Shown: positions 633 to 23,427, counted from the first letter of the stretch. The stretch: 64,000 bases of DNA from an uncultured virus (IMG/VR IMGVR_UViG_3300044972_000796) (IMGVR_UViG_3300044972_000796), one strand, 5' to 3'. Program-made: numbers and translations. Notes: a model not told the origin generated them from the letters alone.

Positions 633-1709
633 ATGGCCAACGAATTTTGTAGAAAACTAAGTAACTCTTTTCGGTTTCTTGAAAAAGATGGCAACATTGT
701 GTATCAACCATGCTGTTGGATTCTTCCAAGTAGCACGCCTATAGAACATAAAATACAACTAACTTCAGTTAGACGACAGTTTACAAAAAATGTACTTGCC
801 GATACTGAAAAAAACTGCCATGAATGCCTTGGACGCGAGCAAAACCAATATGGAGTCAGTCATAGACAAGTTGCCAAAACTTCTATACCAGAAGATGCAG
901 TGGACGGTGATATGTATCACATTGCGGTACAGATCGATTTAACATGTAATGCGGCATGTACAATCTGTGGGCCGCATTCTAGCAGTCTTTGGCAGAAACA
1001 AAATAACCCCAATGCTAAATTAAAAAATTATTCACTACAATATCAAAAATTAATATCTTTTACCAACTTTGATAAACTCACCCGTTTGGACTTTGTGGGT
1101 GGAGAACCATTACTAAGTGAACACAATGTAGATTTTTTGAAACGTGTAACTACTCCGTCAAATGTAGAAGTATTCTATAACACAAACGGTAGTATTTTGC
1201 CAGATTCTGAATTGATAGAATTATGGTCAACATTTAAACAGGTTGATCTTGCATTCAGCATAGATGGAATGAATCAGCAGTTTGATTACATACGTTGGCC
1301 GCTGAGTTGGAAAAAAGTAGAGCATAACATGCTACACTATGATAATATATTAAAAGACAAGCTGGGCTTTTACATACAGTTTACAGCTAATCCTATGAAT
1401 ATCTTTTATTTTAAAGAATTAGAAACCTGGCATTCAAAAAGATCATGGCCCAGTAGAAGCAATGAGTTTTCTGGATTGCAAGTTAGTCCATGCTTTGGTG
1501 TTTGGGGCATAGATGCTACTCCATTAAAGCTAAGACAGCATATAGAAGACAAGTTTGGAACCGACCATATCATAACTCGTTTGTTAAAATCTCATCCTGA
1601 AGTTCCGGGCAAGTTTCAAAAACTGGTTGAAAATATGGAAATGCTGGATCAAAAACGAAACATATCCTACAAGGATACTTTTGCAGAGGTTTTAAAAATT
1701 ATTGGCTAA
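633..1709 (+). CDS. radical SAM protein (N-terminal twitch/SPASM-like Cys cluster)
   Basis: CNAACTIC (CxxxCxxC), GGEP, YNTNG, SIDG motifs; ATG 633 follows AGGA, downstream of tRNA-Met. Confidence 0.85.
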   Translation: MANEFCRKLSNSFRFLEKDGNIVYQPCCWILPSSTPIEHKIQLTSVRRQFTKNVLADTEKNCHECLGREQNQYGVSHRQVAKTSIPEDAVDGDMYHIAVQIDLTCNAACTICGPHSSSLWQKQNNPNAKLKNYSLQYQKLISFTNFDKLTRLDFVGGEPLLSEHNVDFLKRVTTPSNVEVFYNTNGSILPDSELIELWSTFKQVDLAFSIDGMNQQFDYIRWPLSWKKVEHNMLHYDNILKDKLGFYIQFTANPMNIFYFKELETWHSKRSWPSRSNEFSGLQVSPCFGVWGIDATPLKLRQHIEDKFGTDHIITRLLKSHPEVPGKFQKLVENMEMLDQKRNISYKDTFAEVLKIIG

Positions 1710-1784
1710 CTCGCTGTAGTTCAATGGATAGAATAAGGGTTTCCTAAACCTTTGATCCTGGTTCGATTCCGGGTGGCGAGGCCA
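1710..1784 (+). tRNA. tRNA-Arg(CCT)
   Basis: CTCGCTG/TGGCGAG-G-CCA; anticodon arm AGGGT-TTCCTAA-ACCTT. Confidence 0.92.
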
Positions 1785-1791
1785 AAAAGCA

Positions 1792-1820
1792 TTGACATCA
1801 CAACCCAAACACAGTATAAT
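1792..1820 (+). promoter_or_regulatory. sigma70-type early promoter
   Basis: TTGACA-17 nt-TATAAT, perfect consensus. Confidence 0.9.
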
Positions 1821-1840
1821 AACATTTTAATGAGGCATAT

Positions 1841-2071
1841 ATGAGTAAACTAATCGGACTTAGTCGCGGCACTGAAATTGACACCAATCAATGTGTTGAC
1901 CTATCAGGCGGCAACAGATTTAATCTCGTGCTGATTGCGGCAGCAAGAGCACGTGAGATCAAACGCCAACATCGTGAAAGCGACAAGCGTGAACATGTGT
2001 ATTCTAATCTAACTGCACTGCTGGAAATCCAAAGTGGCAAAGTTGGTGCAGAATATTTGAAACGAGTTTGA
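1841..2071 (+). CDS. rpoZ: RNA polymerase omega subunit homologue
   Basis: 76 aa; NRFNLVLIAAARAREI and TALLEIQSGKV match the omega family pattern (NRFxLVxxAAxRAR ... ALxEIxxG). Confidence 0.8.
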   Translation: MSKLIGLSRGTEIDTNQCVDLSGGNRFNLVLIAAARAREIKRQHRESDKREHVYSNLTALLEIQSGKVGAEYLKRV

Positions 2072-2080
2072 TGAGAATAT

Positions 2081-2155
2081 GGGACGTTAGTTCAGAGGTA
2101 GAACTCCATCCTTACACGGTGGCTGTCGGCGGTTCGATCCCGTCACGTCCTACCA
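2081..2155 (+). tRNA. tRNA-Val(TAC)
   Basis: GGGACGT/ACGTCCT-A-CCA; anticodon arm CCATC-CTTACAC-GGTGG. Confidence 0.93.
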
Positions 2156-2164
2156 TTTTATAGT

Positions 2165-2767
2165 ATGAAATACACTATTATTGAAGATTGTAGTCCGTAT
2201 TATATTAGATTTACCCACGATGGTATCGATGATATAATTGACTATTGCAACAAATGTACTCCTGAGATTGCAAATTTAAATAAATTTACAAATTACATTC
2301 TACTAAAGCATCAAGCACAACACATGTTGTCTTTGATTCCTATGGCAGATAGAATAAAATTGATAAAAAATAGAATATCATTGTTTATTAGCAAACCTGG
2401 ATTATATTACAGAGCACATAAAGACGGAATGAACAACAAATTCAGTATCAACTACGTTAGTAGAGTATTAGATGATAAGTGTATTACTAATTGGTATAGT
2501 GATGAAGATCTAAAAGAGTATGCAATAGATAACCTACGCACCAATACATCCAGAGAATGCGATGGTTTCGTAAAAGAAAATCATACACCATTAAAAAGTA
2601 TGATAGCAAAACAAGGCGAGTGTATATTATTTAATACAGAGATATTCCATGATTGGGATAACACTGGCTCAAATAACGAACGAGTAGTACTAACACTACG
2701 TATTATTCCAGAATTAAAACCTCATACATATTTTGAGGATGCAAGAAAAATGTTGTTTAATTATTAA
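2165..2767 (+). CDS. 2OG-Fe(II) oxygenase-like (DSBH) protein
   Basis: HKD ... FNTEIFH ... R-VVLTLR facial-triad pattern. Confidence 0.6.
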   Translation: MKYTIIEDCSPYYIRFTHDGIDDIIDYCNKCTPEIANLNKFTNYILLKHQAQHMLSLIPMADRIKLIKNRISLFISKPGLYYRAHKDGMNNKFSINYVSRVLDDKCITNWYSDEDLKEYAIDNLRTNTSRECDGFVKENHTPLKSMIAKQGECILFNTEIFHDWDNTGSNNERVVLTLRIIPELKPHTYFEDARKMLFNY

Positions 2768-2775
2768 AATAACAT

Positions 2776-2853
2776 GCAACGGTGGCAGAGCGGCCCAATG
2801 CACGGGATTGCAAATCCCGAAGACCGTGAGTTCAAATCTCACCCGTTGCTCCA
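2776..2853 (+). tRNA. tRNA-Cys(GCA)
   Basis: GCAACGG/CCGTTGC-T-CCA (U73); anticodon arm CGGGA-TTGCAAA-TCCCG. Confidence 0.94.
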
Positions 2854-2913
2854 GCTATGTGCTAGTTCATTCTAACTAGATGGTGGAATCGTCACTAACC
2901 AGTGGCCCTTATT

Positions 2914-3044
2914 AGGATACTAACAGCAACTTTTAACATGGAAAAACTTTTGGTCGTGAGTTCGAATCTCACTTTCCGATCAAGCCTAAAAAGCAGTCGG
3001 TTGTAGCTCAGTGGTAGAGCAAAAGTCGTTAAAAATGTATCCTG
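2914..3044 (+). ncRNA. Y RNA-like (YrlA-type) ncRNA with circularly permuted tRNA-like domain; array unit 1
   Basis: Closing stem AGGATAC/GTATCCT plus ACAGCAA. T arm (2956-2972) precedes D arm (3006-3020). Acceptor stem is closed by a linker loop. Upstream of a Ro60-like gene. Confidence 0.75.
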
Positions 3045-3059
3045 TTTCACCAAAATGTA

Positions 3060-3088
3060 TAGACAACACATGTTGTTTGTACTATAAT
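3060..3088 (+). promoter_or_regulatory. sigma70-type promoter inside the RNA array
   Basis: TAGACA-17 nt-TATAAT. Confidence 0.75.
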
Positions 3089-3123
3089 AGTCGTATAGCA
3101 AGTAACATTGTTAAGAAAGTTTT

Positions 3124-3279
3124 AGGATCGGTACAGCAACTTCATATTACATGGACTGCTAATCTTATGCTAATAGCTGGAGCCTTAATTGGCTTTGAAG
3201 GTTATTAGCAATAGTAGGATTAGATAGAGGAGTTTCGATAAGTCTCCTCGATAAAAACAAAAAGTAGAAAACGATCCTG
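3124..3279 (+). ncRNA. structured RNA array unit 2
   Basis: AGGATCG/CGATCCT closing stem plus ACAGCAA; internal hairpins TAATCTTATGCTAATAGC/GTTATTAGCA..TAGGATTA and GAGGAG/CTCCTC. Confidence 0.65.
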
Positions 3280-3287
3280 TTATATTT

Positions 3288-3516
3288 GGATGACTACAGC
3301 AATTTAAAAACTACTAACGTAACTGCTATTGAAAGTGGTTGAAGAACAGGCAGAAATGCTTTCTAGAAATAGACGCTCAAGGAATAGATAGGCCGGCAAA
3401 GCCCGGATATGATTTACATACAGAAAAACATGTAATAGGCAACATGAATGTTGATAGGGTCTGAGTGCCGTAATTGGTCAGACCAGAATACTAAACAAAT
3501 TGGCACGATCATCCTG
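3288..3516 (+). ncRNA. structured RNA array unit 3
   Basis: GGATGA/TCATCC closing stem plus ACAGCAA; internal hairpins GGTCTGA/TCAGACC, CATGT/ACATG, CCGG/CCGG. Confidence 0.6.
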
Positions 3517-3526
3517 TTAAAGTTTT

Positions 3527-3581
3527 AGAATGTTAACAGCAACTTTAAATTTCACTATAATCGAAAATAAAATACATTCTG
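3527..3581 (+). ncRNA. structured RNA array unit 4 (minimal), adjacent to the DUF2828 RBS
   Basis: AGAATGT/ACATTCT closing stem plus ACAGCAA. Confidence 0.6.
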
Positions 3582-3597
3582 TAAAGGTAAAAAGAAA

Positions 3598-5010
3598 ATG
3601 AACGCATTTGTAACAGCAGTAGCAAATCAAGAAGCCCGTACCGAAAATGGTATGAAGGCACGTAAGTCAACAGCTTCGGCTTGTGTTGACTTGTTCTACA
3701 AGATCGGCGCAAGCCGTGGTAAGAACATCACAGGCGACTTCACAGCCGCTTATGTAGAAAACTCTGACGTAGCACTACGCATTGCACAATGGGCACGTGA
3801 TGTCCGTGGCGGTGCTGGTGAACGTCAATTGTTCCGAGATATTCTAGTACATCTAGAAAAGCGTGACCCAGACGCCGCTTTGGCTCTTCTAAAGAAGATT
3901 CCAGAAGTAGGTCGTTGGGATGACATCTTTGTCTTCTCAAACCCAGTTCTGAAGTCAGCCGCTTATACCATGTTGGGCGATGCCCTTCGTGCGCAAAACG
4001 GATTGGCTGCAAAGTGGACTCCTCGTAAGGGTAAGATTGCGGCTGAAGTACGAGCATTCTTCGGAATGACTCCGAAGCAGTACCGCAAGTCATTGGTAAC
4101 AATGACCACAGTTGTTGAAACCCAAATGTGTGCAGGAGATTGGGATAACATCAATTTCAGTCACGTTCCTTCTGTGGCTGCTCGCAACTACAAGAAGGCA
4201 TTCGGCCGTCACACTCCTGCATTTGCAGAGTATGTTGCCAAGTTGGTAAGTGGTGATAAGACTGTTAAGGTTAACGCCAGCGCAATCTTCCCACATGACG
4301 TGTTAAAGGGAGTCATCGGTAGCTACCGTGCTAAGTTGGATAAGACAGAAACTGACCACATTGTGGCACAGTGGAATGCTTTGCCAAACTACGTTGGAGA
4401 TGCAAGCATCATGCCAATTGTAGACGTTAGCGGTTCTATGTCCTGCCCAGCAGGCAAGAACACTAATGTGACTTGCATGGATGTTTCAATTAGCTTGGGC
4501 TTGTACCTAGCAGATAAGAACAAGGGCGTGTTCAAGGACACTTTCTTGACTTTCTCAGACAAGCCACAACTTGTTACTCTAAAGGGTAACATTGTTGACA
4601 AGGTTGCTCAAATGAGCAAGAGTGATTGGGAAATGAGCACTAATTTGCATGCCGCTATGGACAAGATCTTGAGCGTTGCAGTTAAGGGTTCAGTACCAGC
4701 AGGCGACATGCCAGCCATGTTGCTAATCTTGTCAGACATGCAGTTTAACCAATGTGCTCGTTACGACGACACATCAATGCAAATGATCGAACGCAAGTTC
4801 ACAGATGCAGGTTACACTGTGCCACAGATTGTTTTCTGGAACCTAAACAGTTCAGACAACGTGCCTGTTAAGGCTGACAAGAGTGGTGCCGCATTGGTAA
4901 GTGGATTTAGCCCAAGTATAATGACTAGCTTGCTAGCCGCTGATTTGGATCAGTTCACTCCAGAAGGCATCATGCTTAAGACTGTAATGAGTGATCGTTA
5001 CGCTTTGTAA
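3598..5010 (+). CDS. DUF2828 family protein (Ro60/TROVE-like helical domain + vWA domain)
   Basis: RTENG, ARDVRGGAGER, GRWDD, LAAKWTPR, VPSVA, vWA MIDAS DVSGSM, ILSDMQF, IVFWNL, LVSGFSP motifs. Confidence 0.85.
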   Translation: MNAFVTAVANQEARTENGMKARKSTASACVDLFYKIGASRGKNITGDFTAAYVENSDVALRIAQWARDVRGGAGERQLFRDILVHLEKRDPDAALALLKKIPEVGRWDDIFVFSNPVLKSAAYTMLGDALRAQNGLAAKWTPRKGKIAAEVRAFFGMTPKQYRKSLVTMTTVVETQMCAGDWDNINFSHVPSVAARNYKKAFGRHTPAFAEYVAKLVSGDKTVKVNASAIFPHDVLKGVIGSYRAKLDKTETDHIVAQWNALPNYVGDASIMPIVDVSGSMSCPAGKNTNVTCMDVSISLGLYLADKNKGVFKDTFLTFSDKPQLVTLKGNIVDKVAQMSKSDWEMSTNLHAAMDKILSVAVKGSVPAGDMPAMLLILSDMQFNQCARYDDTSMQMIERKFTDAGYTVPQIVFWNLNSSDNVPVKADKSGAALVSGFSPSIMTSLLAADLDQFTPEGIMLKTVMSDRYAL

Positions 5011-5026
5011 AAAACAATGTTTTTGG

Positions 5027-5052
5027 ATAGCACCTTCGGGTGCTATTTTTTT
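5027..5052 (+). terminator. rho-independent terminator
   Basis: ATAGCACC-TTCG-GGTGCTAT followed by a T run. Confidence 0.9.
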
Positions 5053-5065
5053 GAAGCTATCGTTA

Positions 5066-5785
5066 TCATAAGGTAGCAAGCACCCACTCGGCAACTCTCT
5101 TATTCCATTCCGGGCCAGGGTTTACTCCGTCTCTGCCTTTATCACCACTTTCTATCCCATCCGGATAAATGCTTATTGGAATACTAATAAGTCTAACGGC
5201 ATTTGCTTTACATATTTGATCTACAAAATGAGCATTCAGTTCTGCGTTATGAGAATTAGAAGTGTTGTCTAATAACATCCAAAATTCTGGAAACGGCGGC
5301 GTGCCGTTTGTGTTTACTGACTGTTTATAATTGTCTAGAAACACTTCACGTCTTGAAACATAAGGCCAACCAACCAACACCATTACAGTGTTTGCTCTTT
5401 CCTTGAAATAAGGAACAGTACAGCTTACCATTCTTGCTATAGTGTCAGCTGAGGCACCAGGAATTCCAAAATTTAATACTGAGATTCCAGTATGTTGTTC
5501 TATTAATTTTGAATAAGTTTGTTCCAGCTGGATTGCAAGACCCATGGTGGAACTCATACCAAATGATAATATCACAGTGTCATATCGATCTTTGTATTCT
5601 GCGTCTCTATAACCGAGAGAATTAAACTGATAACTTATTTTAGGATCATGATACTTTTCATCTTTAGCAGTATCCTTAGAGCGAGGCCAGAGATCGCCGA
5701 GAAACAACAATATAGAATTAGTATGATGTTCGAATATAGGAAGAGTACGCCAACTTGGAGGAACGTGTGGGTGAAAGTATGTCAT
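5066..5785 (-). CDS. SGNH/GDSL hydrolase-like protein
   Basis: FNSLGYRD, FGMSSTMG, NFGIPGAS, DGVNPG blocks; the catalytic His appears replaced by Asn. Confidence 0.55.
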   Translation of the reverse strand: MTYFHPHVPPSWRTLPIFEHHTNSILLFLGDLWPRSKDTAKDEKYHDPKISYQFNSLGYRDAEYKDRYDTVILSFGMSSTMGLAIQLEQTYSKLIEQHTGISVLNFGIPGASADTIARMVSCTVPYFKERANTVMVLVGWPYVSRREVFLDNYKQSVNTNGTPPFPEFWMLLDNTSNSHNAELNAHFVDQICKANAVRLISIPISIYPDGIESGDKGRDGVNPGPEWNKRVAEWVLATL

Positions 5786-7315: not shown

Positions 7316-7482
7316 TGAAAATTAAATTTGATAAAAACACAATGCCCGATGCACTGTATAATGCACTGTTGCAACACTTTGTAAATGAAGCAGTTGGCCT
7401 TGGCGTAGAAGTAAACAAGTTTACTCAGTTTAACAACTGGGTGGTCGAGTGCGAATGTGATGCTAAGGAAGCGGTACACTGA
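7315..7482 (+). CDS. hypothetical protein (55 aa, not in ORF track)
   Basis: MKIKFDKNTMPDALY...; TAATG and TGATG coupling at both ends. Confidence 0.65.
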   Translation: MKIKFDKNTMPDALYNALLQHFVNEAVGLGVEVNKFTQFNNWVVECECDAKEAVH

Positions 7483-7946
7483 TGCCAAAATGCTATCAAC
7501 TGATTGGAGTGCCTGCCTCGGGCAAAAGTACTTGGATCAAAGACCAAATTTGGGCATTGGGTTTGACCATAGTTAGTACAGATGCGTTTGTGGAAGACTA
7601 TGCTAGAGCACAGGGTAAGACCTATAGTGAAGTGTTTGTAGAATACATGCCCACAGCAATTGACCTAATGATCGAACAGGTTGTGTTTGCACGTGAGCAC
7701 GGTCATACTATAATTTGGGATCAAACCAGTACCACAGTTAAAAGTCGTGCTCGTAAGTTCCATATGCTTCCTGACTACGAACATATTGCTGTGGTGTTTC
7801 GTACACCTGAGCATAAAGAACTCGTGCGGCGTTTGATGAGTCGGCCTGGGAAAGAAATTCCAGACCATGTGGTTGCCAGCATGATTGCCAGCTGGGAAGA
7901 CCCCACAGAACAAGAAGGGTTCAAGGAGATTTGGAACGCAGGTTGA
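7482..7946 (+). CDS. P-loop kinase (AAA_33 / polynucleotide kinase-like)
   Basis: LIGVPASGKSTW, STD, IIWDQTS, lid R-xxx-R. Confidence 0.8.
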   Translation: MPKCYQLIGVPASGKSTWIKDQIWALGLTIVSTDAFVEDYARAQGKTYSEVFVEYMPTAIDLMIEQVVFAREHGHTIIWDQTSTTVKSRARKFHMLPDYEHIAVVFRTPEHKELVRRLMSRPGKEIPDHVVASMIASWEDPTEQEGFKEIWNAG

Positions 7947-7999: not shown

Positions 8000-8605
8000 A
8001 TGCCTAGTGTATTTTTAGTTAGTGATACGCACTTTGGCCACACTGGCGTATGTAAGTTTACCCGAAATGACGGAGTAACCAAATTACGACCGTGGACAGA
8101 TCCAGATGAAATGGACGAAGCTATGGTCAAAGCGTGGAACGAGCGGGTAAAGCCAACTGATAAAGTTTACCATTTAGGTGACGTTGTGATTGCTCGTAAA
8201 GCGTTAAAAATCATGGAACGTCTTAACGGCGACAAAGTTTTAATTCGTGGCAACCACGACATCTACAAAGATGAGGACTACAGCAAGTACTTTAGATCCA
8301 TTAGAGCTTATCACGTTATGAACGGAATGATCCTTAGCCATATTCCGTTACACAGTGATTCAATGGGTCGTTTTGGTACAAACATTCACGGCCATACTCA
8401 CGCAAATCGTGTGAAGAAAGCTCGTGGTGTCGATGCTAGAACTGGTGAAGTTTTATACAGCGATGTAAACGATGTTCGTTATCATTGCGTTTGTGTGGAA
8501 CAAACGCCTGATTTTGCACCTATCTTGTTTGAAGATGTCATAAAGAACATCGAAGCAGAAGGTGGATCAGTGGGATTTAAGAACGGCAACGGCCCTACTA
8601 TGTAA
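8000..8605 (+). CDS. calcineurin-like metallophosphoesterase
   Basis: SDTHFGH, HLGD, GNHD, SHIP, HGHTH. Confidence 0.9.
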   Translation: MPSVFLVSDTHFGHTGVCKFTRNDGVTKLRPWTDPDEMDEAMVKAWNERVKPTDKVYHLGDVVIARKALKIMERLNGDKVLIRGNHDIYKDEDYSKYFRSIRAYHVMNGMILSHIPLHSDSMGRFGTNIHGHTHANRVKKARGVDARTGEVLYSDVNDVRYHCVCVEQTPDFAPILFEDVIKNIEAEGGSVGFKNGNGPTM

Positions 8606-8734: not shown

Positions 8735-9679
8735 ATGTCATTACGAATTAGACGAGGCACAGATGCTCAAAGAGCAACAACATCCCTTGATATGGGTGAA
8801 CTTGTATACACTACAGATACTAAACAACTATACGTTGGTAACGGTATAGATGCCGGCGGCAGTCCTGTTATTCGACTGGGTACAGGTCTTGCATGGGCTG
8901 ACCCGGCATGCACCACTATCATTGCCACAGGTGCAGCTTTACAAGTTTCTGCAGATGCTACTCCAAGTTTAGGCGGTAATTTAAGTTTAAACAGTTATAC
9001 CATTAACGGAACTGGATCTATCAATATTGCCGGCGACATCACTTCAGGCAGCACAACAGTTGACGGTACTCTAAGAACTTTTAATCGTACTAGTTCTCAT
9101 TGTCTTTTTAATTCACTTACTGGAACAGGAAATACATCATTTATAGAAATACAAGTTTCTCGAGGAACTTTTGCAGCACCTACGGCTGTAGTTTCGCAAG
9201 ATTTGATAGGCGGCATAATTTTACGTGGTTACACAGGTTCGGTATTTGCGCCTTCGACTGTTATCGGCAGCGTGGCCGACGGTGTGCCAGTCAACAATGT
9301 GGTGCCTGGCAAATTTGTGGTACAAACAGTCAATGCAACGGGAACAGGAATTAATCTATTAACTTTTGACAAAAACGGAACATTAGCAACAACTGTTGTA
9401 ACTGTGGGAAACGGCACAGTAGGTTCTCCAAGTATTGCATTCAGCGCAGACACTGGTGTCAATACCGGATTTTATCGTCCCAGCGAAGGCGTTATTGGAG
9501 TTTCAACCAATGGCGTAGAAACAGCACAATTTGTTGATGGCGGCATAAGTGTCACTGGATATGTCAAAGTAAAAGATTTTGCTGGGACATTGCCTTTAAC
9601 TCCAACAGCAGGAATGATTGTGCTGGATGGTTCTATATTCAAAGGTTATAACGGAACTGCTTGGGTCGATCTTAACTAA
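8735..9679 (+). CDS. virion tail fibre-like structural protein
   Basis: N-terminal LRIRRGT...GELVYTTDTKQLYVGNG (Mtd-N/hyaluronidase-like), G/T-rich, C-terminal GYNGTAW; TAAATA box at 8682. Confidence 0.7.
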   Translation: MSLRIRRGTDAQRATTSLDMGELVYTTDTKQLYVGNGIDAGGSPVIRLGTGLAWADPACTTIIATGAALQVSADATPSLGGNLSLNSYTINGTGSINIAGDITSGSTTVDGTLRTFNRTSSHCLFNSLTGTGNTSFIEIQVSRGTFAAPTAVVSQDLIGGIILRGYTGSVFAPSTVIGSVADGVPVNNVVPGKFVVQTVNATGTGINLLTFDKNGTLATTVVTVGNGTVGSPSIAFSADTGVNTGFYRPSEGVIGVSTNGVETAQFVDGGISVTGYVKVKDFAGTLPLTPTAGMIVLDGSIFKGYNGTAWVDLN

Positions 9680-12574: not shown

Positions 12575-13196
12575 ACTTGTTACGTTCGGATGCTCTTATA
12601 CATATGGGCAAGGGCTTCCAGATTGTCAATCAACTAATATATTGATATTCACATTTGATAATTCTAGATCAAGCAAGCTGGGCTGGCCCCAACAGGTAGC
12701 AGACGCATTGGGATTAGAGCTAGTTAACAAGTCAAAGCCTGGAGCAAGTAATTTAGAAATTTTATATTCCGTACTAGAATTTAGATTTGAAGAAACTGAC
12801 ACAGTTGTTATCATGTGGTCTCATTCTCTAAGAGATATGTTTGTTAACACACTATTCAACATGTTTCCTTCTCGCAAACAATTAGGAGCTTGGAAAACAT
12901 CAAGTCTTGCTTTGAAATGGACTGCACAATTAAGCGAACACGATTATGCCATGCGTACTTGGATATACATGCATCATGCCGGCTTATATCTTGAGCAGAA
13001 AAAAATAAAGTTTATACACTATCCGGCCACTATGCAAGAGTTGAATAAATTTAAAATGCCCAATTTAGCAATCAATAATCTATACACATCTGGCATTACA
13101 CATTTAGACCACTGTGTAGGAGACAGCCATCCTGGGCCAAAATCAAATGAAGCTACTGCAAATATCATCGCTGGAATACTACAGCAAGTGTGTTAG
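12564..13196 (+). CDS. SGNH/GDSL hydrolase-like protein
   Basis: FGCSYTYG, NKSKPGASN, DSHPG. Confidence 0.65.
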   Translation: MKNRLVTFGCSYTYGQGLPDCQSTNILIFTFDNSRSSKLGWPQQVADALGLELVNKSKPGASNLEILYSVLEFRFEETDTVVIMWSHSLRDMFVNTLFNMFPSRKQLGAWKTSSLALKWTAQLSEHDYAMRTWIYMHHAGLYLEQKKIKFIHYPATMQELNKFKMPNLAINNLYTSGITHLDHCVGDSHPGPKSNEATANIIAGILQQVC

Positions 13197-14591
13197 TTCG
13201 GGAAAAACACTAGTGAACTCTATTTTTCGTAATGGTTGTAATGTTTCAATATATTCTTTGAATGCTGGTAACTGATTGCTGTGGTCTTCTGCATCCATAA
13301 AGTCTAACACTGCTTGCCAGCGTTTCCATCCATAGGGATTATTTTTCCAAAAGTCGTCATCTTGTCTGTAGTTGGCATATAGCCATACTTTTAGTTCGTC
13401 AAACGTTTTTCTCACTGCTGCCTTGTCTAACGCAGGCAAGCATCTAATGCTTAAAAATGTAGGTATATATAACAGGTGCATATTAAAAATACCGCCGCCT
13501 GCTTGTATATCACCAGTAACATTACCAAAGTTAATTTTCTTAAAATTTTGTTGAATCTTCCATTTAGCAAAATCTGCCAAGTGTTTGATATTTAAGATTT
13601 GTATGGCAGTGGCAATACTAGTTTGTATATTATCAGGAGTATTATCTAGTCTGTGTAAATTTCTTACTATAGTGTTCCAATCACTAGGATACCGTATGTA
13701 GTAATTCTTATCTCCAATAGCATCAATGCTAAATCCCACTTTAACTTTTTTGAACTTGCTCCATAATTCAATAATCGAATCGTCTATTAAGAGTCCGTTA
13801 GTATTGTAACGTACAAGAATTTTGTCTGCGTACCCTTGACGAATAATTTCTTCAAGGAACATCGTATGTTCTTTAATCATAAGTGGCTCGCCACCGGCAA
13901 AATATACTTGTTTTAAGTTAGGAATTTGTGCATACATTTCTTTCCAAAAGTCCGGATTTTCATGCCACTTATTATTAAATTCTTTTTGATCCCAATGCAT
14001 CTGAGATTTTAGTTCTGGCGCTTTGAATAGCGGATAAATCTTTTTATGATCTGCTACCCACTTACTGCTGTCGTGGGGACTGCACATAACGCACTTTAAG
14101 TTACAAGTGTGTCCAAGTCGAAGATCCAAATAGACTAACTGTTCAGGAACAGTTCCGTCTTCTTGTGTTTGACGGATTAATTCTTCTAAATCAATTCCTT
14201 CTTCGTGCCAAGTAGCAGTTTCCCATATACGCTTACTAGCAACACCTTTACTCTCTTCATCATAACATTTTTTACAACTTGCGGGAATTTTTCCCTCCAG
14301 CATAGTTGTTCTAACATCACGCATGTATGTATTATTCCATGCACTCATGGGAGTTTCTCGGCCAAAGTTAGCAGGTGTGCCCTTTTCATTTTTAACTAAT
14401 CCCACAGTGTGATTTTCACCAGCGCCACTGGCATTCGCACTACAGCATAATCTCATATCGCCGTTAGGCCTAGTAGCAAAATGTATCCAAGGCAACACAC
14501 AAAATGTACTGCTCTTAGTTAAAATTTCTATTTTTTTCTGCCAAAATCCAATTTTGGTATCTTCAGGTTGAATCCAAAATGTTTTAGACAT
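13179..14591 (-). CDS. radical SAM protein (twitch domain)
   Basis: FCVLPW...LCC, CKKC, CNLKCVMC, FAGGEP, YNTNG. Confidence 0.9.
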   Translation of the reverse strand: MSKTFWIQPEDTKIGFWQKKIEILTKSSTFCVLPWIHFATRPNGDMRLCCSANASGAGENHTVGLVKNEKGTPANFGRETPMSAWNNTYMRDVRTTMLEGKIPASCKKCYDEESKGVASKRIWETATWHEEGIDLEELIRQTQEDGTVPEQLVYLDLRLGHTCNLKCVMCSPHDSSKWVADHKKIYPLFKAPELKSQMHWDQKEFNNKWHENPDFWKEMYAQIPNLKQVYFAGGEPLMIKEHTMFLEEIIRQGYADKILVRYNTNGLLIDDSIIELWSKFKKVKVGFSIDAIGDKNYYIRYPSDWNTIVRNLHRLDNTPDNIQTSIATAIQILNIKHLADFAKWKIQQNFKKINFGNVTGDIQAGGGIFNMHLLYIPTFLSIRCLPALDKAAVRKTFDELKVWLYANYRQDDDFWKNNPYGWKRWQAVLDFMDAEDHSNQLPAFKEYIETLQPLRKIEFTSVFPELTHLL

Positions 14592-15255
14592 GTGTTACCT
14601 TAAATTCAGATGTGACGAGTTGTTTAAATTCTTCAAGCAATTCGCGTTCTACTTTAAATGACAAACTAAATGTAGTGTGAGCAAAATTTGCTAACTTGTA
14701 TTTCTGATTTGCTCTATTTAAAAATGGACTAAAGATTTTATCAAATTTATATCTAAAATCGTTTTGTTCGTATGCCGCTTCAATAGCAACGCTGACTAAA
14801 TCTACTGGCTGACGACTGTTACGTAACGGTTCACGCACAACTAATTGTAGTCGTGGAACAGAACCGTAGTTGGTAGCCGCATGTATACGACTAGCATCCA
14901 TATAAGCCCAGCGATTATCCCTGACACATTCGTGCATAACTTTGTTATCCAAATCAATCAAGTATGCTTGCTCGCCAGTCAAGTTCAAATGCCAACGGTT
15001 GTCTATGTCAGCATGAGCCATATAACTTTCACCTGGCGCCAGTTTAATAATACGTGCTTGTCCAATAGACACAGGCATTGTGTCTAATACTTGTTGCCAA
15101 ATTGTGTCTTTATACAAGTCTTTAATCTTCCATGTATCGTAAAAGAAGTCGCCTGTTGGTTCATTAAGTACAGTACCTTCGCCCGTAACTGGATGTTCTC
15201 TAAGTGCTTGTTCAATCAGTCCTTCTGGACACACCCATATTTGTTTGGTAATCAT
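14584..15255 (-). CDS. Asp/Asn beta-hydroxylase-like 2OG-Fe(II) oxygenase
   Basis: ARIIKLAPG..AHAD...HAATN...R; ATG 15255 follows TATAAATA. Confidence 0.7.
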   Translation of the reverse strand: MITKQIWVCPEGLIEQALREHPVTGEGTVLNEPTGDFFYDTWKIKDLYKDTIWQQVLDTMPVSIGQARIIKLAPGESYMAHADIDNRWHLNLTGEQAYLIDLDNKVMHECVRDNRWAYMDASRIHAATNYGSVPRLQLVVREPLRNSRQPVDLVSVAIEAAYEQNDFRYKFDKIFSPFLNRANQKYKLANFAHTTFSLSFKVERELLEEFKQLVTSEFKVTHV

Positions 15256-15294
15256 AAAATATTTATATGTTGTTATCACTTGCTTAAATATATC

Positions 15295-15975
15295 ATGGAA
15301 CTGTATTTAAAACATAATTGGAAGAGAATTGGCATAAGCATAAGTGGTGGTGCCGATAGTGCATTACTAGCATACTTAATATGTTCAAATACAAACGCAG
15401 ATATACATTTTACAAATCAAATTAGGCTTTGGAAAACACGACCATGGCAAGAACATGTAGCTGACACGGTTATTGCTTGGTTTAAGGATCACTTTAAAAA
15501 TAACTTTTATCTACATAGAAATCTGATTCCGTCAGAATTAGAATGGGCTGACAAAGGCCCAACTATCGTAGATGAATATGGAAAATTAAAAAGCGGCAAT
15601 CAAATTATATTAAGATCACACAACGAGTATATTGCTCACAAGTACAAACTAGATGCATTGTACGGAGGTATTAACAAGAATCCAGATATTGAGATAGAAG
15701 GATCATTAGCTGATCGAGATACTGGACACATACCTCCTCATTTTATACACAACGGTGTTGATATTTGCCATCCATTCGTGTATACTAAGAAAGATTGGAT
15801 TATTAAACAGTATTTTGAAAATGGTATAGAAGAATTGTTAAATTTAACTCGTAGTTGCGAGGGCGAATTTGAAGATGTAGATTATACTACATATACCGCC
15901 GGACAACATGTTCCTGTGTGTGGAAAATGTTTCTGGTGTAAAGAAAGAGAGTGGGCAATTGAACAATCAAAGTAA
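15295..15975 (+). CDS. QueC-like PP-loop adenine nucleotide alpha-hydrolase
   Basis: ISGGADS PP-loop; TRSC...CGKCFWCKER Zn site; ATG follows TAAATA. Confidence 0.7.
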   Translation: MELYLKHNWKRIGISISGGADSALLAYLICSNTNADIHFTNQIRLWKTRPWQEHVADTVIAWFKDHFKNNFYLHRNLIPSELEWADKGPTIVDEYGKLKSGNQIILRSHNEYIAHKYKLDALYGGINKNPDIEIEGSLADRDTGHIPPHFIHNGVDICHPFVYTKKDWIIKQYFENGIEELLNLTRSCEGEFEDVDYTTYTAGQHVPVCGKCFWCKEREWAIEQSK

Positions 15976-17224
15976 AACATTTTGCATGCATCCTTTTACA
16001 GGATTAGCTACACGTGAAGACGGAGCCGTTAAAGTCTGCTGTCGTAGCCTGCCTGTTGGTTGGATTCAAGATGAAAGTCTAGAAAGCGTGTGGAATAGCC
16101 AAAACATGCAAGAAGTACGAAAACAAATACTTAATAACGAACGTCCACTTGTGTGTATGCCATGTTTTGATTTAGAAGATCAAGGCGTTGAGAGTTTACG
16201 TCAGCGACACATTAAAGATTCCATTCCAGAGAGTCGTATCAATCTTTATCCCAATGCACTTGATACACTAACTGACAACTATACAATGCCGTTTGAATTT
16301 CCCACAATGGAAATTAAACTTAATAATTTGTGTAACTTACGTTGTCGTATGTGTAATCCATTAGACAGTACTAATTGGAGTGACTGGAATGAAGTTGTTC
16401 CGTTTTACAAAAAAGAAAACAACTATCTAGTGTCCACTGTGGAAAAACTAGTAAGCAAACCAGGACAGTATATTGGATCATTCGATGACACTGACAACTG
16501 GTGGGGCAGCTTTGAAAAACTACTACCACACTTTAGACGAGTTGAGTTTGCTGGCGGCGAACCATTAATGGATCCGCAACACTATAAAATTTTAGATATG
16601 CTCAAGCCTTATGGTAAGAACATAGAAATCAAGTATGCCACAAACGGCACAACACTGGGTATTAGCAAAGGAAGAACTATACATGACTATTGGCCTCATT
16701 TTAGATCAGTTGCCGTTAACGTCAGCATTGACGGCATTCATGATGTTTACAATTACATTCGTGGTAACGGCAACTTTAGCCAACTCGAAGAAAATATTAA
16801 AGAAATTCAATCCATACCAAATGTGAGCCGTGTGGTAGGTGCATTCACTGCACAAGGCGGAAACATACTACAAGCCGCAGAGTGCGTTGATTACTTTATC
16901 AACAAAATGGGAATTGTGTTTTACAGTCATCGTGTTAGCTATCCCAACTGTTTATCAGCACAAGTATTGCCACAAGCGTTAAAAGATCTAGCAATACAAA
17001 GATTACAAGAAGTTAAATCACGAGTAGACTCATTTGAAGCTGTTAAGAAAAATGCATTATTAGGTAAAGTGACGCATCAACAAATACAAGACAATATAAA
17101 TTATTTGCAGGCAAAGGACCAAAATAATCTATGGAACGACTTTGTTGAGTTTAACCAAAAATTAGATGCCACACGTAAACAAAGTTTATTAGATACTGTC
17201 CCAGAGTTTAAACTGTATGTATGA
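15959..17224 (+). CDS. radical SAM protein (twitch domain)
   Basis: FCMHPF, VCC, CNLRCRMC, FAGGEP; start uncertain (TTG 15959 vs 15908). Confidence 0.88.
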   Translation: MNNQSKTFCMHPFTGLATREDGAVKVCCRSLPVGWIQDESLESVWNSQNMQEVRKQILNNERPLVCMPCFDLEDQGVESLRQRHIKDSIPESRINLYPNALDTLTDNYTMPFEFPTMEIKLNNLCNLRCRMCNPLDSTNWSDWNEVVPFYKKENNYLVSTVEKLVSKPGQYIGSFDDTDNWWGSFEKLLPHFRRVEFAGGEPLMDPQHYKILDMLKPYGKNIEIKYATNGTTLGISKGRTIHDYWPHFRSVAVNVSIDGIHDVYNYIRGNGNFSQLEENIKEIQSIPNVSRVVGAFTAQGGNILQAAECVDYFINKMGIVFYSHRVSYPNCLSAQVLPQALKDLAIQRLQEVKSRVDSFEAVKKNALLGKVTHQQIQDNINYLQAKDQNNLWNDFVEFNQKLDATRKQSLLDTVPEFKLYV

Positions 17225-18197
17225 ATTAGTTAACATTCGAGATATTCATTTGGAATTAACAAGTAAGTGCCAAGCCAGGTGTCCAATGTGCCCGCGACGT
17301 ATTAGTGGCGGCATACTTAATCCATTGATAACATTAAACGAAATAACTTTAAGTCAATTTAAAAAATGGTTTTCTGTTGAATTTATACAGCAGTTAGATA
17401 GCTTGTTTATATGCGGCAATTTAGGCGATCCTATTGTAGCACAAGATTGTTTAAAAATACTCCAATACATTAAGGAAACAAATCCTGCAATACAATTGAG
17501 TATGCATACCAACGGCAGTGCTAAAAATACACAATGGTGGGAACAATTAGCCTACACCAAAACTAGGGTTGTATTCGGTATCGATGGTCTTGCAGACACT
17601 CACTCTCTCTATAGGGTAGGTACAGATTATAATAAAATTATAGAAAATGCATCTGCTTTCATACATGCCGGCGGCAATGCAGAATGGCATATGTTGGCAT
17701 TTGAGCACAACGAGCACCAAATTGCAGAGTGTCAAACCATTAGTGAATATCTTAAATTTAAAAGATTCACAGTCAAACATACCAGTCGATTTACTAGTAA
17801 TAAGTGGCATGTGTTGGATGACGAAGGCAAAACAACACATATTTTACGACCTACAGAAATCAGCCAGGATATGATATCCAAAGTTAAAGAGTCAACAACT
17901 GTGGCTTCAACAATACAATGCAAGGCTGTGAAGTATAAACAACTATATATTGCAGCCGATGGATCTATTAGTCCTTGTTGTTGGTTAGACGTTAGTTGGA
18001 TGCTGCCAACGCATGGCTCCCGCATTGATTATATGGATTCCATTGGAAACTTTCCTAATCTAAATAAAAATACAATAGAAGAAATATTTGAATCCGGCCA
18101 CTTCAAACAAATAGAAGATACATGGAATATCAAGCCTTTAATCGAATGCAGCAAGCAGTGTGGCAAGTTTGATAAATCAGGAGCACAATTTGTCTAA
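17217..18197 (+). CDS. radical SAM/SPASM protein
   Basis: CQARCPMC, HTNG, IDGL, C-terminal C...PCC...CxxxC. Confidence 0.88.
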   Translation: MYELVNIRDIHLELTSKCQARCPMCPRRISGGILNPLITLNEITLSQFKKWFSVEFIQQLDSLFICGNLGDPIVAQDCLKILQYIKETNPAIQLSMHTNGSAKNTQWWEQLAYTKTRVVFGIDGLADTHSLYRVGTDYNKIIENASAFIHAGGNAEWHMLAFEHNEHQIAECQTISEYLKFKRFTVKHTSRFTSNKWHVLDDEGKTTHILRPTEISQDMISKVKESTTVASTIQCKAVKYKQLYIAADGSISPCCWLDVSWMLPTHGSRIDYMDSIGNFPNLNKNTIEEIFESGHFKQIEDTWNIKPLIECSKQCGKFDKSGAQFV

Positions 18198-19077
18198 GGT
18201 AACTGGTCGGTGGCCACATCAAAATAGCATCAAGGTTGAATGGAACCTAGGCAAACGATGTAATTATGACTGTAGTTACTGTCCAGCGTCCATACACGAT
18301 AACACAAGCACACATACTGATATAGAAATACTAAAATCAACCATTGATAAATTGATGACTTTAGGCAAGCCTGTACGTCTTAGTTTTACAGGCGGTGAGC
18401 CCACTGTACATCCTAAATTTAAAGAATTGATTCAATATTGTAATCATGTTGGTATCAGTTGGATTAGTGTAACAACTAATGGTACAATGCCATATGAATT
18501 TTACGCTAGTTTAAATGTTGATCAGATAGTGTTTAGTTTGCATTTAGAATATGATTGGCAACGTGTTTACAATACTATGAGTAAAGTTGCAGACTTTACA
18601 AAAATTAAAATTATATCACAGATCATGTGCCATCATGATCACATGCCTGCAGCCTATACACTATTTGCTAGATGTTTAACTGCACACATTCCTGCTACTT
18701 TACGACGCATACGCTGGACTGAAGGTGATCACGATTTGTTTGACGATATGCGTTATCACCCTGATGATTTAAATTGGATTAAAAAACTAGAATCAACTGT
18801 GCAAGGAAACTGTGTAATAGACGATACACAAATAATTCATGCAAACGATGTGATTAAGTTGCATTTAAATAAATTCAAAGACTGGTCTTGTAATGCAGGC
18901 ATTGAAAGCCTAATGATTAATTGGGATGGAGATGTTCACAGAGCAACTTGTCGGGTAGGAGGAAGTTTAGGTAATATATATAAAGGCACATTTTTGCAAC
19001 CTATCGAAGCTATTATTTGTGATAGGAACTTTTGCACATGTGCTGCCGATATACCCTTAACAAAATATAAAATATGA
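18190..19077 (+). CDS. radical SAM/SPASM protein
   Basis: CNYDCSYC, FTGGEP, TTNG, C-terminal CNAG...C...CxxxxCxC; TTG start after AGGAG. Confidence 0.88.
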   Translation: MSKVTGRWPHQNSIKVEWNLGKRCNYDCSYCPASIHDNTSTHTDIEILKSTIDKLMTLGKPVRLSFTGGEPTVHPKFKELIQYCNHVGISWISVTTNGTMPYEFYASLNVDQIVFSLHLEYDWQRVYNTMSKVADFTKIKIISQIMCHHDHMPAAYTLFARCLTAHIPATLRRIRWTEGDHDLFDDMRYHPDDLNWIKKLESTVQGNCVIDDTQIIHANDVIKLHLNKFKDWSCNAGIESLMINWDGDVHRATCRVGGSLGNIYKGTFLQPIEAIICDRNFCTCAADIPLTKYKI

Positions 19078-19544
19078 AATTCTTAAAAAATATTCAAATA
19101 GACCAACGTGCATTAGATTTCATGATGCAAAACACCGGGTCAAAACGTCCTGTATTGCCGCCTGCAAATTATCAAAAAGAAACATGTGAAAAATGGATTG
19201 CAGCTGGATGCGATATTAATCGCTTATACTGGGAATCATTTAGTAGTGACAACTTTCCCTTCACAGTTGATTTGCCCTTTGTTGGAAATTGGTGGTTCAG
19301 CAAGCTATTACCTGGCAATGTATTTCCATATCATCAAGATATATATCCCAGTCTTGAACCTAAAAGCAGATTGTGGATCGCATGCCAGGATTACCAACCA
19401 GGACACTTATTTTCATACGGTGATAAAGTGTTGACTGATTACAAAAAAGGTGATGTTTTTGAATTTGATAGTATCTCAATCTCACACGGTGCCGCAAATT
19501 GTAGTCTCGTACCTAAAATTAGTTTGCAGGTAGTCATTACATGA
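19074..19544 (+). CDS. 2OG-Fe(II) oxygenase-like protein
   Basis: PYHQD ... HGAAN ... KISLQ. Confidence 0.6.
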   Translation: MKFLKNIQIDQRALDFMMQNTGSKRPVLPPANYQKETCEKWIAAGCDINRLYWESFSSDNFPFTVDLPFVGNWWFSKLLPGNVFPYHQDIYPSLEPKSRLWIACQDYQPGHLFSYGDKVLTDYKKGDVFEFDSISISHGAANCSLVPKISLQVVIT

Positions 19545-20368
19545 AAATACAAAATCTTGATCCAAAAAAATATAAAAGATTTTTTGCGTTCGGTTGTAGT
19601 TTTACTAACTACAACTGGCCTACATGGGCAGACATTATAGGTAAAGATATTGAAGTATATGTGAATTGGGGGAAACAAGCAGGCGGCAACTATTTTATAT
19701 TTAATAGTGTTATGGAAGCCGATGCACGTTATAATTTTACCAAAGACGATTTAGTAATTATTTTCTGGACTATCAAAGACCGAGAAGACAGATATTCTGT
19801 TAACGAATGGGTACATTTTTCCCCTTACAACATTGAAGCAAATTATGGTAAAGAATGGACTGAAAAGTATTATTTTGATGACAGACACTATTTAATGCGT
19901 GACCTTACTTTAATTAAAGCAACCCAGCATATTTTAAAAACTAAAGAGTGTGACTGGGCAAATTTATCATGGGGAGAGTTTTTACACAGTGACGATCTAA
20001 AATCTAAATATGATCTTGCTGATAAATCTCAAAAAACAACAATGATGAAAGAATGGAGAGATCAGTGTAAAAAAATATATGGTGGAGGAGAAATTCCAAA
20101 ATATGTTGACAACAATGATATAATAACATTGTATCAATCAGTATTTGATGATTTTAGTGGTGTATATAAATGGTTTCGTACCGAGCGTCTAGACGAAGAA
20201 CGACGTGTTTCTCCAGGAAATGATTTACATCCTATGCCAAGTGAAGCACTGATGTTCTTAGATTGGGTGTGGCCTAACAATTTATTAAGTAGTAACGCTA
20301 GAAACTATGCTAATAATTGGGTTCATTCAAATCACGCAATGACTCGCCCAGTTGTGACTAGACTATAA
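19541..20368 (+). CDS. SGNH hydrolase-like protein
   Basis: FGCSFT, NWGKQAGGN, DLHP. Confidence 0.6.
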   Translation: MKIQNLDPKKYKRFFAFGCSFTNYNWPTWADIIGKDIEVYVNWGKQAGGNYFIFNSVMEADARYNFTKDDLVIIFWTIKDREDRYSVNEWVHFSPYNIEANYGKEWTEKYYFDDRHYLMRDLTLIKATQHILKTKECDWANLSWGEFLHSDDLKSKYDLADKSQKTTMMKEWRDQCKKIYGGGEIPKYVDNNDIITLYQSVFDDFSGVYKWFRTERLDEERRVSPGNDLHPMPSEALMFLDWVWPNNLLSSNARNYANNWVHSNHAMTRPVVTRL

Positions 20369-21148: not shown

Positions 21149-21188
21149 AAAAACCTTGCTAAGTATATGTTTAATTATCACTTTAAAC

Positions 21189-22887: not shown

Positions 22888-23425
22888 CAATTTAACGTTT
22901 GTACATATTCCCAAAAGTGCAGGGTCAAGTGTAGTTGAATGGTTAAGTAGAAATTTTGAGTATGAACGAATTGGCGGACATCCTAACTTGTCAACAATTA
23001 AAGAGTCGTGGAATGTTGGCCGGTCCTTTGCAATTGTTCGTAACCCGTGGGCAAGAATGGTAAGTTCATATTTTTATCTACAACAATATAAGTTTTATTG
23101 GGAAAATAATAACATTAAGTCAATAGATGATTTTCCCACGTGGAATCAGTTTGTTGGTAAACTTGACTATGATACACAGAGTTGGAACTCGTTATCTACT
23201 AACCAGTGTAAATGGATTGAGCCGGGTGTTGACTGGTTGTTCAAAGCTGAAACTCTCTCAACAGATTTTAAAGTGATACAAAATTTACTAAATTGTGAAA
23301 AACCGTTGCCTTATATCAACACCTCAACACACAACGATTATAAAACATACTATACAACTGATCAGAAAAATAAAATAGCAAACATATTTAAAGAAGACAT
23401 CGAGCTATATACTTACACATTTTAA
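22862..23425 (+). CDS. sulfotransferase family 2 protein
   Basis: FVHIPKSAGSS (5'-PSB) and VRNPWARMVSSY (3'-PB). Confidence 0.85.
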   Translation: MAAINLPNNNLTFVHIPKSAGSSVVEWLSRNFEYERIGGHPNLSTIKESWNVGRSFAIVRNPWARMVSSYFYLQQYKFYWENNNIKSIDDFPTWNQFVGKLDYDTQSWNSLSTNQCKWIEPGVDWLFKAETLSTDFKVIQNLLNCEKPLPYINTSTHNDYKTYYTTDQKNKIANIFKEDIELYTYTF

Positions 23426-23427
23426 TA

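Follow-up and report, generated by a model that had tools for sequence, protein, structure and literature searches.

Ro60 and its Y RNAs form a classic, poorly understood RNA-surveillance particle, and bacterial Y RNAs were recognised as tRNA mimics in 2014. In YrlA, a T arm, a closed acceptor stem-loop and a D arm follow one another within a terminal stem, a GNCGAA motif is the presumed site of Rsr binding, and covariation of the Levitt pair served as the signature of the fold (Chen et al., 2014; PMC4201824). The same work raises a role for the tRNA fold in stability, points out that tandem tRNA genes can imitate the order of T arm then D arm, and describes D. radiodurans Yrn2 as cut from a tRNA precursor (PMC4201824). 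YrlA genes are further characterised by a TROVE-domain Ro60 orthologue on their strand at a distance of up to about 4 kb, and the RNA by binding to the Ro protein and by modifications of the tRNA type. Here we describe a related design in a 64,000-nucleotide (nt) stretch of DNA, hereafter the window, from an uncultured lake phage (IMG/VR IMGVR_UViG_3300044972_000796). Its central element, unit 1 (2913-3046, + strand), carries the parts of a tRNA in permuted order and lies upstream of a gene (3598-5010) for a protein of the Pfam families DUF2828 and DUF7788. We read unit 1 as a structured RNA of about 131 nt that is a Y-RNA-type partner of this Ro60-fold protein, and place the probability of that reading at roughly 0.62.

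Related proteins are known from several phages. The Ro60 of Thermus phage phiLo binds two Yrl RNAs encoded upstream of it together with the host PNPase, and a hijacking of PNPase has been proposed (PMC12135203; PDB 9L5Y, 9KOP). Felixounavirus Bas63 gp130 has a Ro60-like structure and counters the Ppl defence, and some of the 'tRNA genes' near it were guessed to be Y RNAs (PMC11482910, preprint). Listeria phage protein CKA15_055 is Rsr-like by HHpred and present in virions, and abundant unannotated RNAs upstream of it were also guessed to be Y RNAs (PMC12282133). A further point of comparison comes from the Class I RNAs, which were reported as unique to Dictyostelia. They start with AAG, of which the G is invariant, join their ends in a 6-bp stem with compensatory changes, carry an 11-nt motif adjoining the 5' strand of this stem, and end in CUGU, the C of which pairs with the 5' G; their middle is variable, their length is 42-65 nt, and their known binder is Rnp1A (Kjellin et al., 2021; PMC7919456). 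The uncharacterised protein DDB_G0281243 is one of four pulled down with a Class I RNA, according to a preprint. Statements attributed to cited papers, here and below, follow excerpts of those papers.

Results

Unit 1 resembles an inside-out tRNA

The first-pass annotation of this DNA had claimed that tRNA elements occur in permuted order in unit 1, and each element that it named is found at its place. The tRNA-like domain (2946-3026, + strand) begins with ACTTT, the 3' strand of an anticodon-stem-like helix (2946-2950), continues through a five-base variable loop, TGGTC (2951-2955), a T arm, GTGAG-TTCGAAT-CTCAC (2956-2972), and an acceptor 3' strand, TTTCCGA (2973-2979), and crosses a 17-nt linker without CCA that closes the acceptor-like stem (2980-2996). 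It then returns through the acceptor 5' strand TCGGTTG (2997-3003), a TA that corresponds to U8 and A9 (3004-3005), the D arm GCTC-AGTGGTA-GAGC (3006-3020) and AAAGT (3022-3026), which pairs with ACTTT. The acceptor-like stem has seven positions, and two of these are U:U mismatches (T:T in the DNA) in unit 1; both the mismatches and the missing CCA had been reported earlier and are borne out by the sequence. Instead of opening into a 7-nt anticodon loop, the anticodon-stem-like helix runs on into a connecting helix, TTTTAAC/GTTAAAA (2931-2937/3028-3034), again as annotated, and from there into a closing stem, GGATAC/GTATCC (2915-2920/3037-3042).

Many of the nucleotides that hold a tRNA together are kept: U8, A14, G15:C48, G18G19, G53:C61, U54, U55, C56 and A58. 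The fold of unit 1 as a permuted cloverleaf with neither an anticodon loop nor a free CCA end is confirmed. Because the anticodon loop is missing, unit 1 is a tRNA mimic, as had been proposed, and not a permuted tRNA gene; maturation to a decoding tRNA was considered and rejected on the same ground. Neither ARAGORN nor the Rfam tRNA model calls unit 1, as expected from its permuted order, and Rfam searches at gathering thresholds return seven tRNAs only.

The topology is that of YrlA, with a T arm, a closed acceptor stem-loop and a D arm inside a terminal stem (PMC4201824). Consistent with this, the Rfam YrlA covariance model (RF02553) aligns end to end with 2938-3047, at 29.1 bits and E 5e-4 under relaxed filters in a 1-kb search with 4227 families, and relatives reach 30.2 and 30.8 bits. 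The gathering score of the model is 69 bits, which unit 1 does not reach, and GNCGAA(N0-1)G has no match on the + strand of 1400-5100 and two on the - strand, inside the gene. The earlier description of unit 1 as YrlA-like therefore stands for topology and falls for family: membership in YrlA is rejected, since unit 1 scores below the cut-off, GNCGAA is absent from all four units of the array described below, and the presumed partner is not a Pfam TROVE protein.

In four relatives the 17-nt loop at 2980-2996 has almost the same sequence, above a stem that covaries, and in two of the four it reads AAACAGCAG, an echo of the ACAGCAA motif described below. This loop may be a second binding or processing site. 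If it were processed as in a tRNA, RNase P and RNase Z would cut the loop and CCA would be added, leaving a nicked tRNA-type end that is perhaps aminoacylated, as reported for M. smegmatis YrlA. The seven-position stem, a loop long enough to hold a leader and a trailer, and the conservation of the loop above a covarying stem all favour such processing. However, the two U:U mismatches weaken the stem in unit 1, most relatives close the acceptor-like stem with loops of 3-5 nt that leave little to process, and decoding is impossible without an anticodon loop. We thus regard a processed, tRNA-type end as quite unlikely.

Four tandem units share a handle

The two ends of unit 1 together form what we call the handle. 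On the 5' side it consists of AG, a 6-bp stem, two bases and ACAGCAA; at the 3' end stands the complementary strand of the stem, whose last C opens CUGU. In unit 1 the 5' AG leads into the stem strand at 2915-2920 and ACAGCAA at 2923-2929, with the 3' strand at 3037-3042 and CUGU at 3042-3045. The same handle is common to all four tandem units (2915-3582) that lie 5' of the gene at 3598-5010, and its stem sequences vary among the four in a compensatory fashion. A strict handle pattern matches the 64 kb exactly four times, always on the + strand, whereas 200 shuffles yield 0.175 matches on average. Among 27 aligned minimal units from this system, ACAGCAA is nearly invariant and the AG start and CUGU are present at the level of the DNA, and all seven handle pairs form in 23 of the 27.

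A covariance model of the handle alone (R2) recovers unit 4 only when run on the phage's 71.8-kb record. Long cargos lower the score of units 1-3 in R2, and the strict pattern finds all four.

Relatives conserve the fold, exchange the cargo and keep to the strand of the gene

Related loci were taken as the best 80 of 341 confirmed relatives of the protein in viral contigs (86-100% identical). Unit 1 is matched in full in six of these 80 loci. A further 12 retain only its two ends, with a short hairpin between them, which means that the cargo has been swapped within a nearly unchanged handle; the tRNA-like cargo is thus dispensable in near-identical phages. Still other related loci have tRNA-like units with different stem sequences. 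Cargos in this system are exchangeable cassettes.

A second covariance model (R1) was built from four units, including unit 1, which itself scores 157.7 bits. Among 81 sources, R1 gives 11 matches at or above 59.8 bits, and 138 of 138 matches at E <= 1 lie on the strand of the gene. It also reaches well beyond the close relatives: across 80 loci from bacterial and archaeal genome bins, whose proteins are only 32-67% identical, 46 of 46 matches are on the gene's strand, and 16 matches of at least 39 bits fall in 11 of these loci. The same architecture, with different sequences, recurs in many phyla. For the handle-only model R2, 39 of 39 matches are on the strand of the gene, spread over 25 of 85 loci. 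A scan of viral contigs that started from a distant homologue (P0227) gave no match to the pattern. In one contig from a Saprospirales bin (L109), the region downstream of the DUF2828 gene and its handle units holds, at 5027-5466, several tRNA genes in a row and a tmRNA gene (94 bits).

The covariation alignment has 29 rows, made up of 25 tRNA-like units from 22 sources (the window and 21 loci) and four minimal units. All six helices are kept in the 25 tRNA-like units. Standard pairs occupy 91.6% of cells over the 29 rows, compared with 39-48% when the partners are slid, a difference to be read with the fact that rows were aligned by fitting to the model, which favours structure, and that the slid controls share this bias in part. 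Of the 35 pairs, 31 vary on both sides, and none of 500 shuffles reaches the observed values. By helix, pairing is 100% in the T and D arms, 92.4% in the acceptor-like stem, 89.9% in the anticodon-like stem and 98% in the handle, where all seven pairs show changes on both sides. The Levitt pair is G15:C48 in 12 of the 25 tRNA-like rows and A15:U48 in eight; of the five others, one is a parsing artefact (in locus L155). U8, A14, G18G19 and a GTTCRA T loop are also kept in relatives.

These data bear on the idea that there is no functional RNA here at all, and that unit 1 is the remains of two decayed tRNA genes, an element acting at the DNA level such as a promoter array, or a product of chance. 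Tandem tRNA genes can indeed mimic the order of T arm then D arm (PMC4201824), R1 gives weak, partial matches on genuine tRNA pairs, and promoter-like hexamers overlap unit 4. Yet the two acceptor strands of unit 1 pair with each other, there is no 5' half ahead of its T arm, the closing helices covary, the strict handle pattern occurs at about 20 times the shuffle mean, and the architecture recurs with different sequences in many phyla. An explanation without a functional RNA is therefore very improbable.

The adjacent gene encodes a divergent Ro60-fold protein

Unit 1 is followed, 550 nt downstream and on the same strand, by a gene for a 470-residue protein (3598-5010, + strand) that matches Pfam DUF7788 (E 1e-49) and DUF2828 (E 1e-28) and PHROG 850, 'RNA-binding protein'. 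Pfam TROVE (PF05731) has no match in the gene, nor anything in the genome at E <= 10, and neither NCBIfam nor a phmmer search of the protein against the PDB gives a match. This large protein family forms 6243 clusters at 50% identity, and a profile of 50 members searched against the PDB ranks TROVE/Ro60 chains first, weakly (E 0.012-0.15).

An AlphaFold (AF2) model of the protein, with a predicted local distance difference test score (pLDDT) of 89.5 and a predicted template modelling score (pTM) of 0.89, was compared with 48,161 chains in a VIA-align wide search. The top match is Xenopus Ro60 with RNA (1yvp_A; Z 21.5, root-mean-square deviation 4.2), with 410 residues aligned over residues 6-451 of the model. 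Second is the Ro60 of Thermus phage phiLo (9l5y_B; Z 14.8, 394 residues) and third is D. radiodurans Rsr (2nvo_A; Z 12.8); beyond these three Ro60 structures, matches are to vWA domains only, at Z of 9.2 or less. Residues D276, S278 and S280 are invariant in 50 homologues, and we take them to be the metal-binding (MIDAS) DxSxS motif of the vWA domain. Based upon the structural matches, the profile order and the invariant residues, the predicted structure is that of a divergent Ro60-fold protein, with a helical-repeat ring and a C-terminal vWA domain. The first-pass annotation had called the neighbouring protein Ro-like, and the fold of the model agrees with this, though by Pfam the protein is DUF2828/DUF7788 and not TROVE. 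It is the presumed partner of the four handle RNAs.

Possible roles of the tRNA-like cargo

How might such a particle work? The linkage of handle and gene suggests that the protein ring would grip the handle through its stem, ACAGCAA and CUGU. The elbow formed by the D loop and T loop of the cargo, together with the acceptor helix, could then dock a tRNA-recognising host factor onto the ring, giving a machine akin to the Ro-Y RNA-PNPase complex; its task in the infected cell would be to remodel RNA or to protect it. Through units 2 to 4, the same ring would gain other specificities. As unit 1 sits 60 nt behind a tRNA gene array, it may be cut out of a tRNA precursor transcript.

Anticodon nucleases and acceptor-end toxins usually attack a tRNA at its anticodon loop or at its acceptor or CCA end. 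If unit 1 were a decoy, one of the roles named in the first-pass annotation, a tRNA-shaped RNA would titrate a host defence factor that responds to the shape of a tRNA, such as a tRNA nuclease or modifier, and spare the tRNA pool, with the protein as an optional part. The phage carries its own set of tRNAs, unit 1 retains an elbow and an acceptor helix, features by which many proteins recognise tRNA, and the Bas63 homologue of the neighbouring protein counters a defence system (PMC11482910). However, unit 1 has neither an anticodon loop nor a free 3' CCA end, and the idea is weakened because the parts that most tRNA-targeting toxins attack are missing; moreover, a short hairpin replaces the mimic in 12 close loci, where the mimic is thus dispensable. 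We consider a decoy unlikely.

The exchange of cargos could also mean that the tRNA-like domain is a module for stability alone, a compact fold that shields the RNA from nucleases and recruits nothing. This possibility was raised for YrlA (Chen et al., 2014; PMC4201824), and it fits cargos that are interchangeable between near-identical handles. Yet the nucleotides of the tertiary fold and of recognition are kept across proteins only 32-36% identical, and short hairpin cargos are evidently enough for a stable unit. A role in stability and nothing else therefore seems improbable.

Several observations weigh against the reading of unit 1 as a Y-RNA-type partner of the Ro60-fold protein. First, the handle is matched at E <= 0.01 in just 25 of 85 distant loci; the pairing of handle and protein is therefore frequent and not universal, or the handle diverges past the reach of model R2. 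Second, the fitted rows of the covariation alignment favour structure, as noted above. Third, the predicted stability of unit 1 is ordinary (minimum free energy (MFE) z = -0.79, with 48 of 200 shuffles as stable), and its acceptor-like stem contains the two mismatches. Fourth, contigs from RNA libraries barely cover the tRNA-like insert, with depths of 0, 5.74, 0 and 3.51 in the bin at 2943-3023, and instead join the ends of unit 1 (2929-3032) over hairpin cargos of 14-22 nt; such contigs show neither RNA ends nor strand and are neutral on the expression of unit 1. Finally, the host factor proposed above, an exoribonuclease such as PNPase or an enzyme of RNA repair or processing, is a guess by analogy.

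Units 2 to 4 and promoter-like sites

The other three units of the array were identified by the handle pattern on the + strand. Unit 2 (3125-3280) has the same handle with a long, stable hairpin as cargo (MFE -48.2 kcal/mol, z -5.2) and is homologous, at least in part, in 52 of the 80 related loci. Unit 3 (3288-3517) has a 230-nt cargo of multiple hairpins, is covered by RNA-library contigs and is homologous in 47 of the 80; its folding energy gives z -1.25. Unit 4 (3528-3582) is a minimal handle RNA of 55 nt, homologous in 68 of the 80, that scores 58.4 bits with R2 and 18.3 bits with the Rfam family Dicty_Class_I_RNA. Units 2-4 and the gene are covered by contigs of all four freshwater RNA libraries compared; these libraries come from four studies, and their contigs give good coverage of 3186-5048.

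Two promoter-like sites lie among the units, both on the + strand and both with 11 of 12 consensus positions. One, TAGACA-17-TATAAT at 3060-3088, lies between unit 1 and unit 2; it is no more than a match to the consensus. The other, TTAACA-17-TATAAT at 3533-3561, is inside unit 4, and its first hexamer overlaps the ACAGCAA motif of that unit. Unit 4 may double as a promoter or leader of the Ro-like gene.

Gene neighbourhood

On the + strand, the order of features is tRNA genes, units 1-4 (2913-3582) and the 470-codon gene. Seven tRNA genes, found with the Rfam tRNA model and ARAGORN, lie just 5' of unit 1 at 296-2853. The last is tRNA-Cys(GCA) (2776-2853, + strand; Rfam tRNA 60.3 bits, also called by ARAGORN); unit 1 starts 60 nt past it, and the T arms of the two differ at one base of the loop. 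When 2760-3600 was compared by blastn with 50,697 phage records, the tRNA-Cys part alone was matched. The window makes up the first 64 kb of a viral contig of 71.8 kb. This contig is rated 19% complete, which implies that the source phage has a genome of several hundred kb.

Downstream of the Ro-like gene, at a distance of 2.5-3.6 kb, are genes for an AAA_33 P-loop kinase (7482-7946, + strand; Pfam E 1.1e-17) and a calcineurin-like phosphoesterase (8000-8605, + strand; Pfam E 3e-07). A kinase and a phosphoesterase of these types are a domain pair of the kind used for healing RNA ends. Pfam scans of the window show no RNA ligase.

The window holds further genes of interest. Genes of the radical SAM type, at least nine in number and several of them with SPASM domains, are spread across 591-1709, 13179-26010 and 42184-43476, and near them are a sulfotransferase-like gene and an Asp/Asn hydroxylase-like gene; the group looks like a large gene set for peptide or metabolite modification. 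An open reading frame at 8735-9679 resembles the major tropism determinant in its N-terminal domain (Mtd_N, E 1.6e-10) and may encode a receptor-binding protein of the diversity-generating-retroelement type. Other phage genes include those for a ClpP protease (36198-36815), a Bax-inhibitor-1 family membrane protein (39525-40220), a UvdE UV endonuclease (56775-57881) and an Fe/Mn superoxide dismutase (58376-58936).

Discussion

The system in laboratory phages

Relatives of the protein are found by tblastn in 706 phage records, and handle units adjoin the gene in three of the four records that we examined: wV8, A511 and Faith1. In E. coli phage wV8, a region of tRNA genes downstream of the gene contains three units, of which one carries a tRNA-like cargo. 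This tRNA-like unit (4869-4995 of our wV8 locus, L162) is overlapped by an annotated minus-strand coding sequence, CDS 48 'hypothetical protein', probably called in error, and two 'tRNA-OTHER' pseudogene features lie near it. The three units of Listeria phage A511 lie upstream of gp57. In mycobacteriophage Faith1, three ACAGCAA sites are found downstream of a gene annotated 'Ro-like RNA binding protein', and R2 matches two of these sites. Aeromonas phage Aeh1 has no convincing unit within 2.5 kb of the gene.

One further region stands out in the Listeria phages. At about 958-1560 of our A511 locus (L163), corresponding to 26,236-26,727 of CKA15, there is an unannotated stretch of about 500 nt with a strong TTGACA-17-TATAGT promoter, just past tRNA-Pro and without a handle. 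It lies upstream of the three handle units, and we do not equate the abundant RNAs of CKA15 with these units. Region 26,236-26,727 is the most highly transcribed reported for that phage (PMC12282133).

Both Bas63 gp130 and CKA15_055 belong to the same family as the window protein, and both were likened to Ro60 or Rsr by their authors. The excerpts of these two papers give no definition of the RNAs, of a handle or of a tRNA-like fold (PMC11482910; PMC12282133); here, we locate the units in wV8 and A511/CKA15, both relatives. No published description of the handle RNA family was found in the literature that we searched on DUF2828, phage YrlA, and phage Ro-like proteins and Y RNAs. Hundreds of well-studied phages have this design, among them relatives of Felix O1, A511/P100 and the cluster-L mycobacteriophages; in these phages the protein is vaguely annotated and the RNAs are unannotated. 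Since one family member already has a phenotype, the countering of Ppl, its RNA partners are directly testable in laboratory strains.

Comparison with the Class I RNAs of Dictyostelia

RF01414, the Rfam family of the Class I RNAs, is the only family besides the tRNA-related ones and YrlA that matches the units repeatedly. In searches of about 1, 62 and 59 kb it gives eight full-length matches, which score 18.3-32.4 bits and coincide with units on the strand of the gene; none lies elsewhere. The best, 32.4 bits, is in a relative (E 1.8e-4, local search), and the best in the window is the 18.3 bits of unit 4; none of the eight reaches the family cut-off of 41.5 bits. The likeness is nonetheless detailed. 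The phage units share with Class I RNAs an (A)AG start with an invariant G, a covarying 6-bp stem that joins the ends, ACAGCAA beside its 5' strand and a CUGU end whose C pairs with the 5' G, which is present in the DNA sequence of all four units. They also share an A/U-rich variable middle, occurrence in many copies, and size, minimal phage units being 48-62 nt long compared with 42-65 nt.

There are also differences. ACAGCAA makes up the last seven letters of the 11-nt consensus motif in Rfam; the first four differ, so that 7 of 11 letters are identical in the window, while some distant loci have nine; distant loci also read AAAG-stem-UUACAGCAA. Unit 1, at 131 nt, falls outside the range of 42-65 nt owing to its cargo, and the phage units occur outside Dictyostelia and without a DUSE promoter.

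The protein, too, has a dictyostelid relative. Tieghemostelium (Dictyostelium) lacteum KYR00564.1 (DLAC_02580; P0399), a DUF2828/DUF7788 protein encoded on a 1.2-Mb contig and, at 504 residues, similar in size to those of phages, is 32% identical to the window protein (E 2e-69). Further DUF2828 homologues are present in other Amoebozoa (Nematostelium and Cavostelium), in Mortierellaceae fungi and in Rosaceae plants. No DUF2828 protein of D. discoideum was seen, only that of T. lacteum, when the search considered just those candidates with exact word matches to the query. We tentatively propose that the phage handle RNAs and the dictyostelid Class I RNAs are one family, with a Ro60-fold DUF2828 protein as common partner and thus a second ancient particle of the Ro/Y type, and give this somewhat less than an even chance. 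If it holds, phages, giant viruses, bacteria, archaea and amoebae would all have such a particle, with exchangeable cargos such as an inside-out tRNA, and the Class I RNAs, orphans since their description in 2004, would gain a testable partner, for which DLAC_02580 and perhaps DDB_G0281243 are candidates.

Comparison with YrlA and the phage phiLo Ro60

The closest described RNA is YrlA. Like YrlA, unit 1 consists of two modules, a protein-proximal terminal stem and a tRNA-like domain with its elements in the same order, and it keeps the tertiary nucleotides of tRNA along with a covarying Levitt pair 15:48. Its setting is alike too, with a Ro60-fold gene in the same orientation less than 1 kb away and with further small RNAs and tRNA genes close by. 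Unlike YrlA, it has a handle of the form AG-stem-ACAGCAA...CUGU with no GNCGAA(N)G, its presumed partner belongs to DUF2828/DUF7788 and not to Pfam TROVE, and it is part of a system with up to four or five tandem units whose cargos can be swapped. Phage phiLo offers a parallel for the locus as a whole, in that a phage Ro60-fold protein is encoded with small RNAs just upstream. There, however, the protein is a TROVE protein and the RNAs have a CGAA motif, and the excerpt of the phiLo paper mentions no tRNA-like domain (PMC12135203). The present locus realises the same design with different parts: its handle is another one, and its protein family goes unrecognised by the TROVE model of Pfam.

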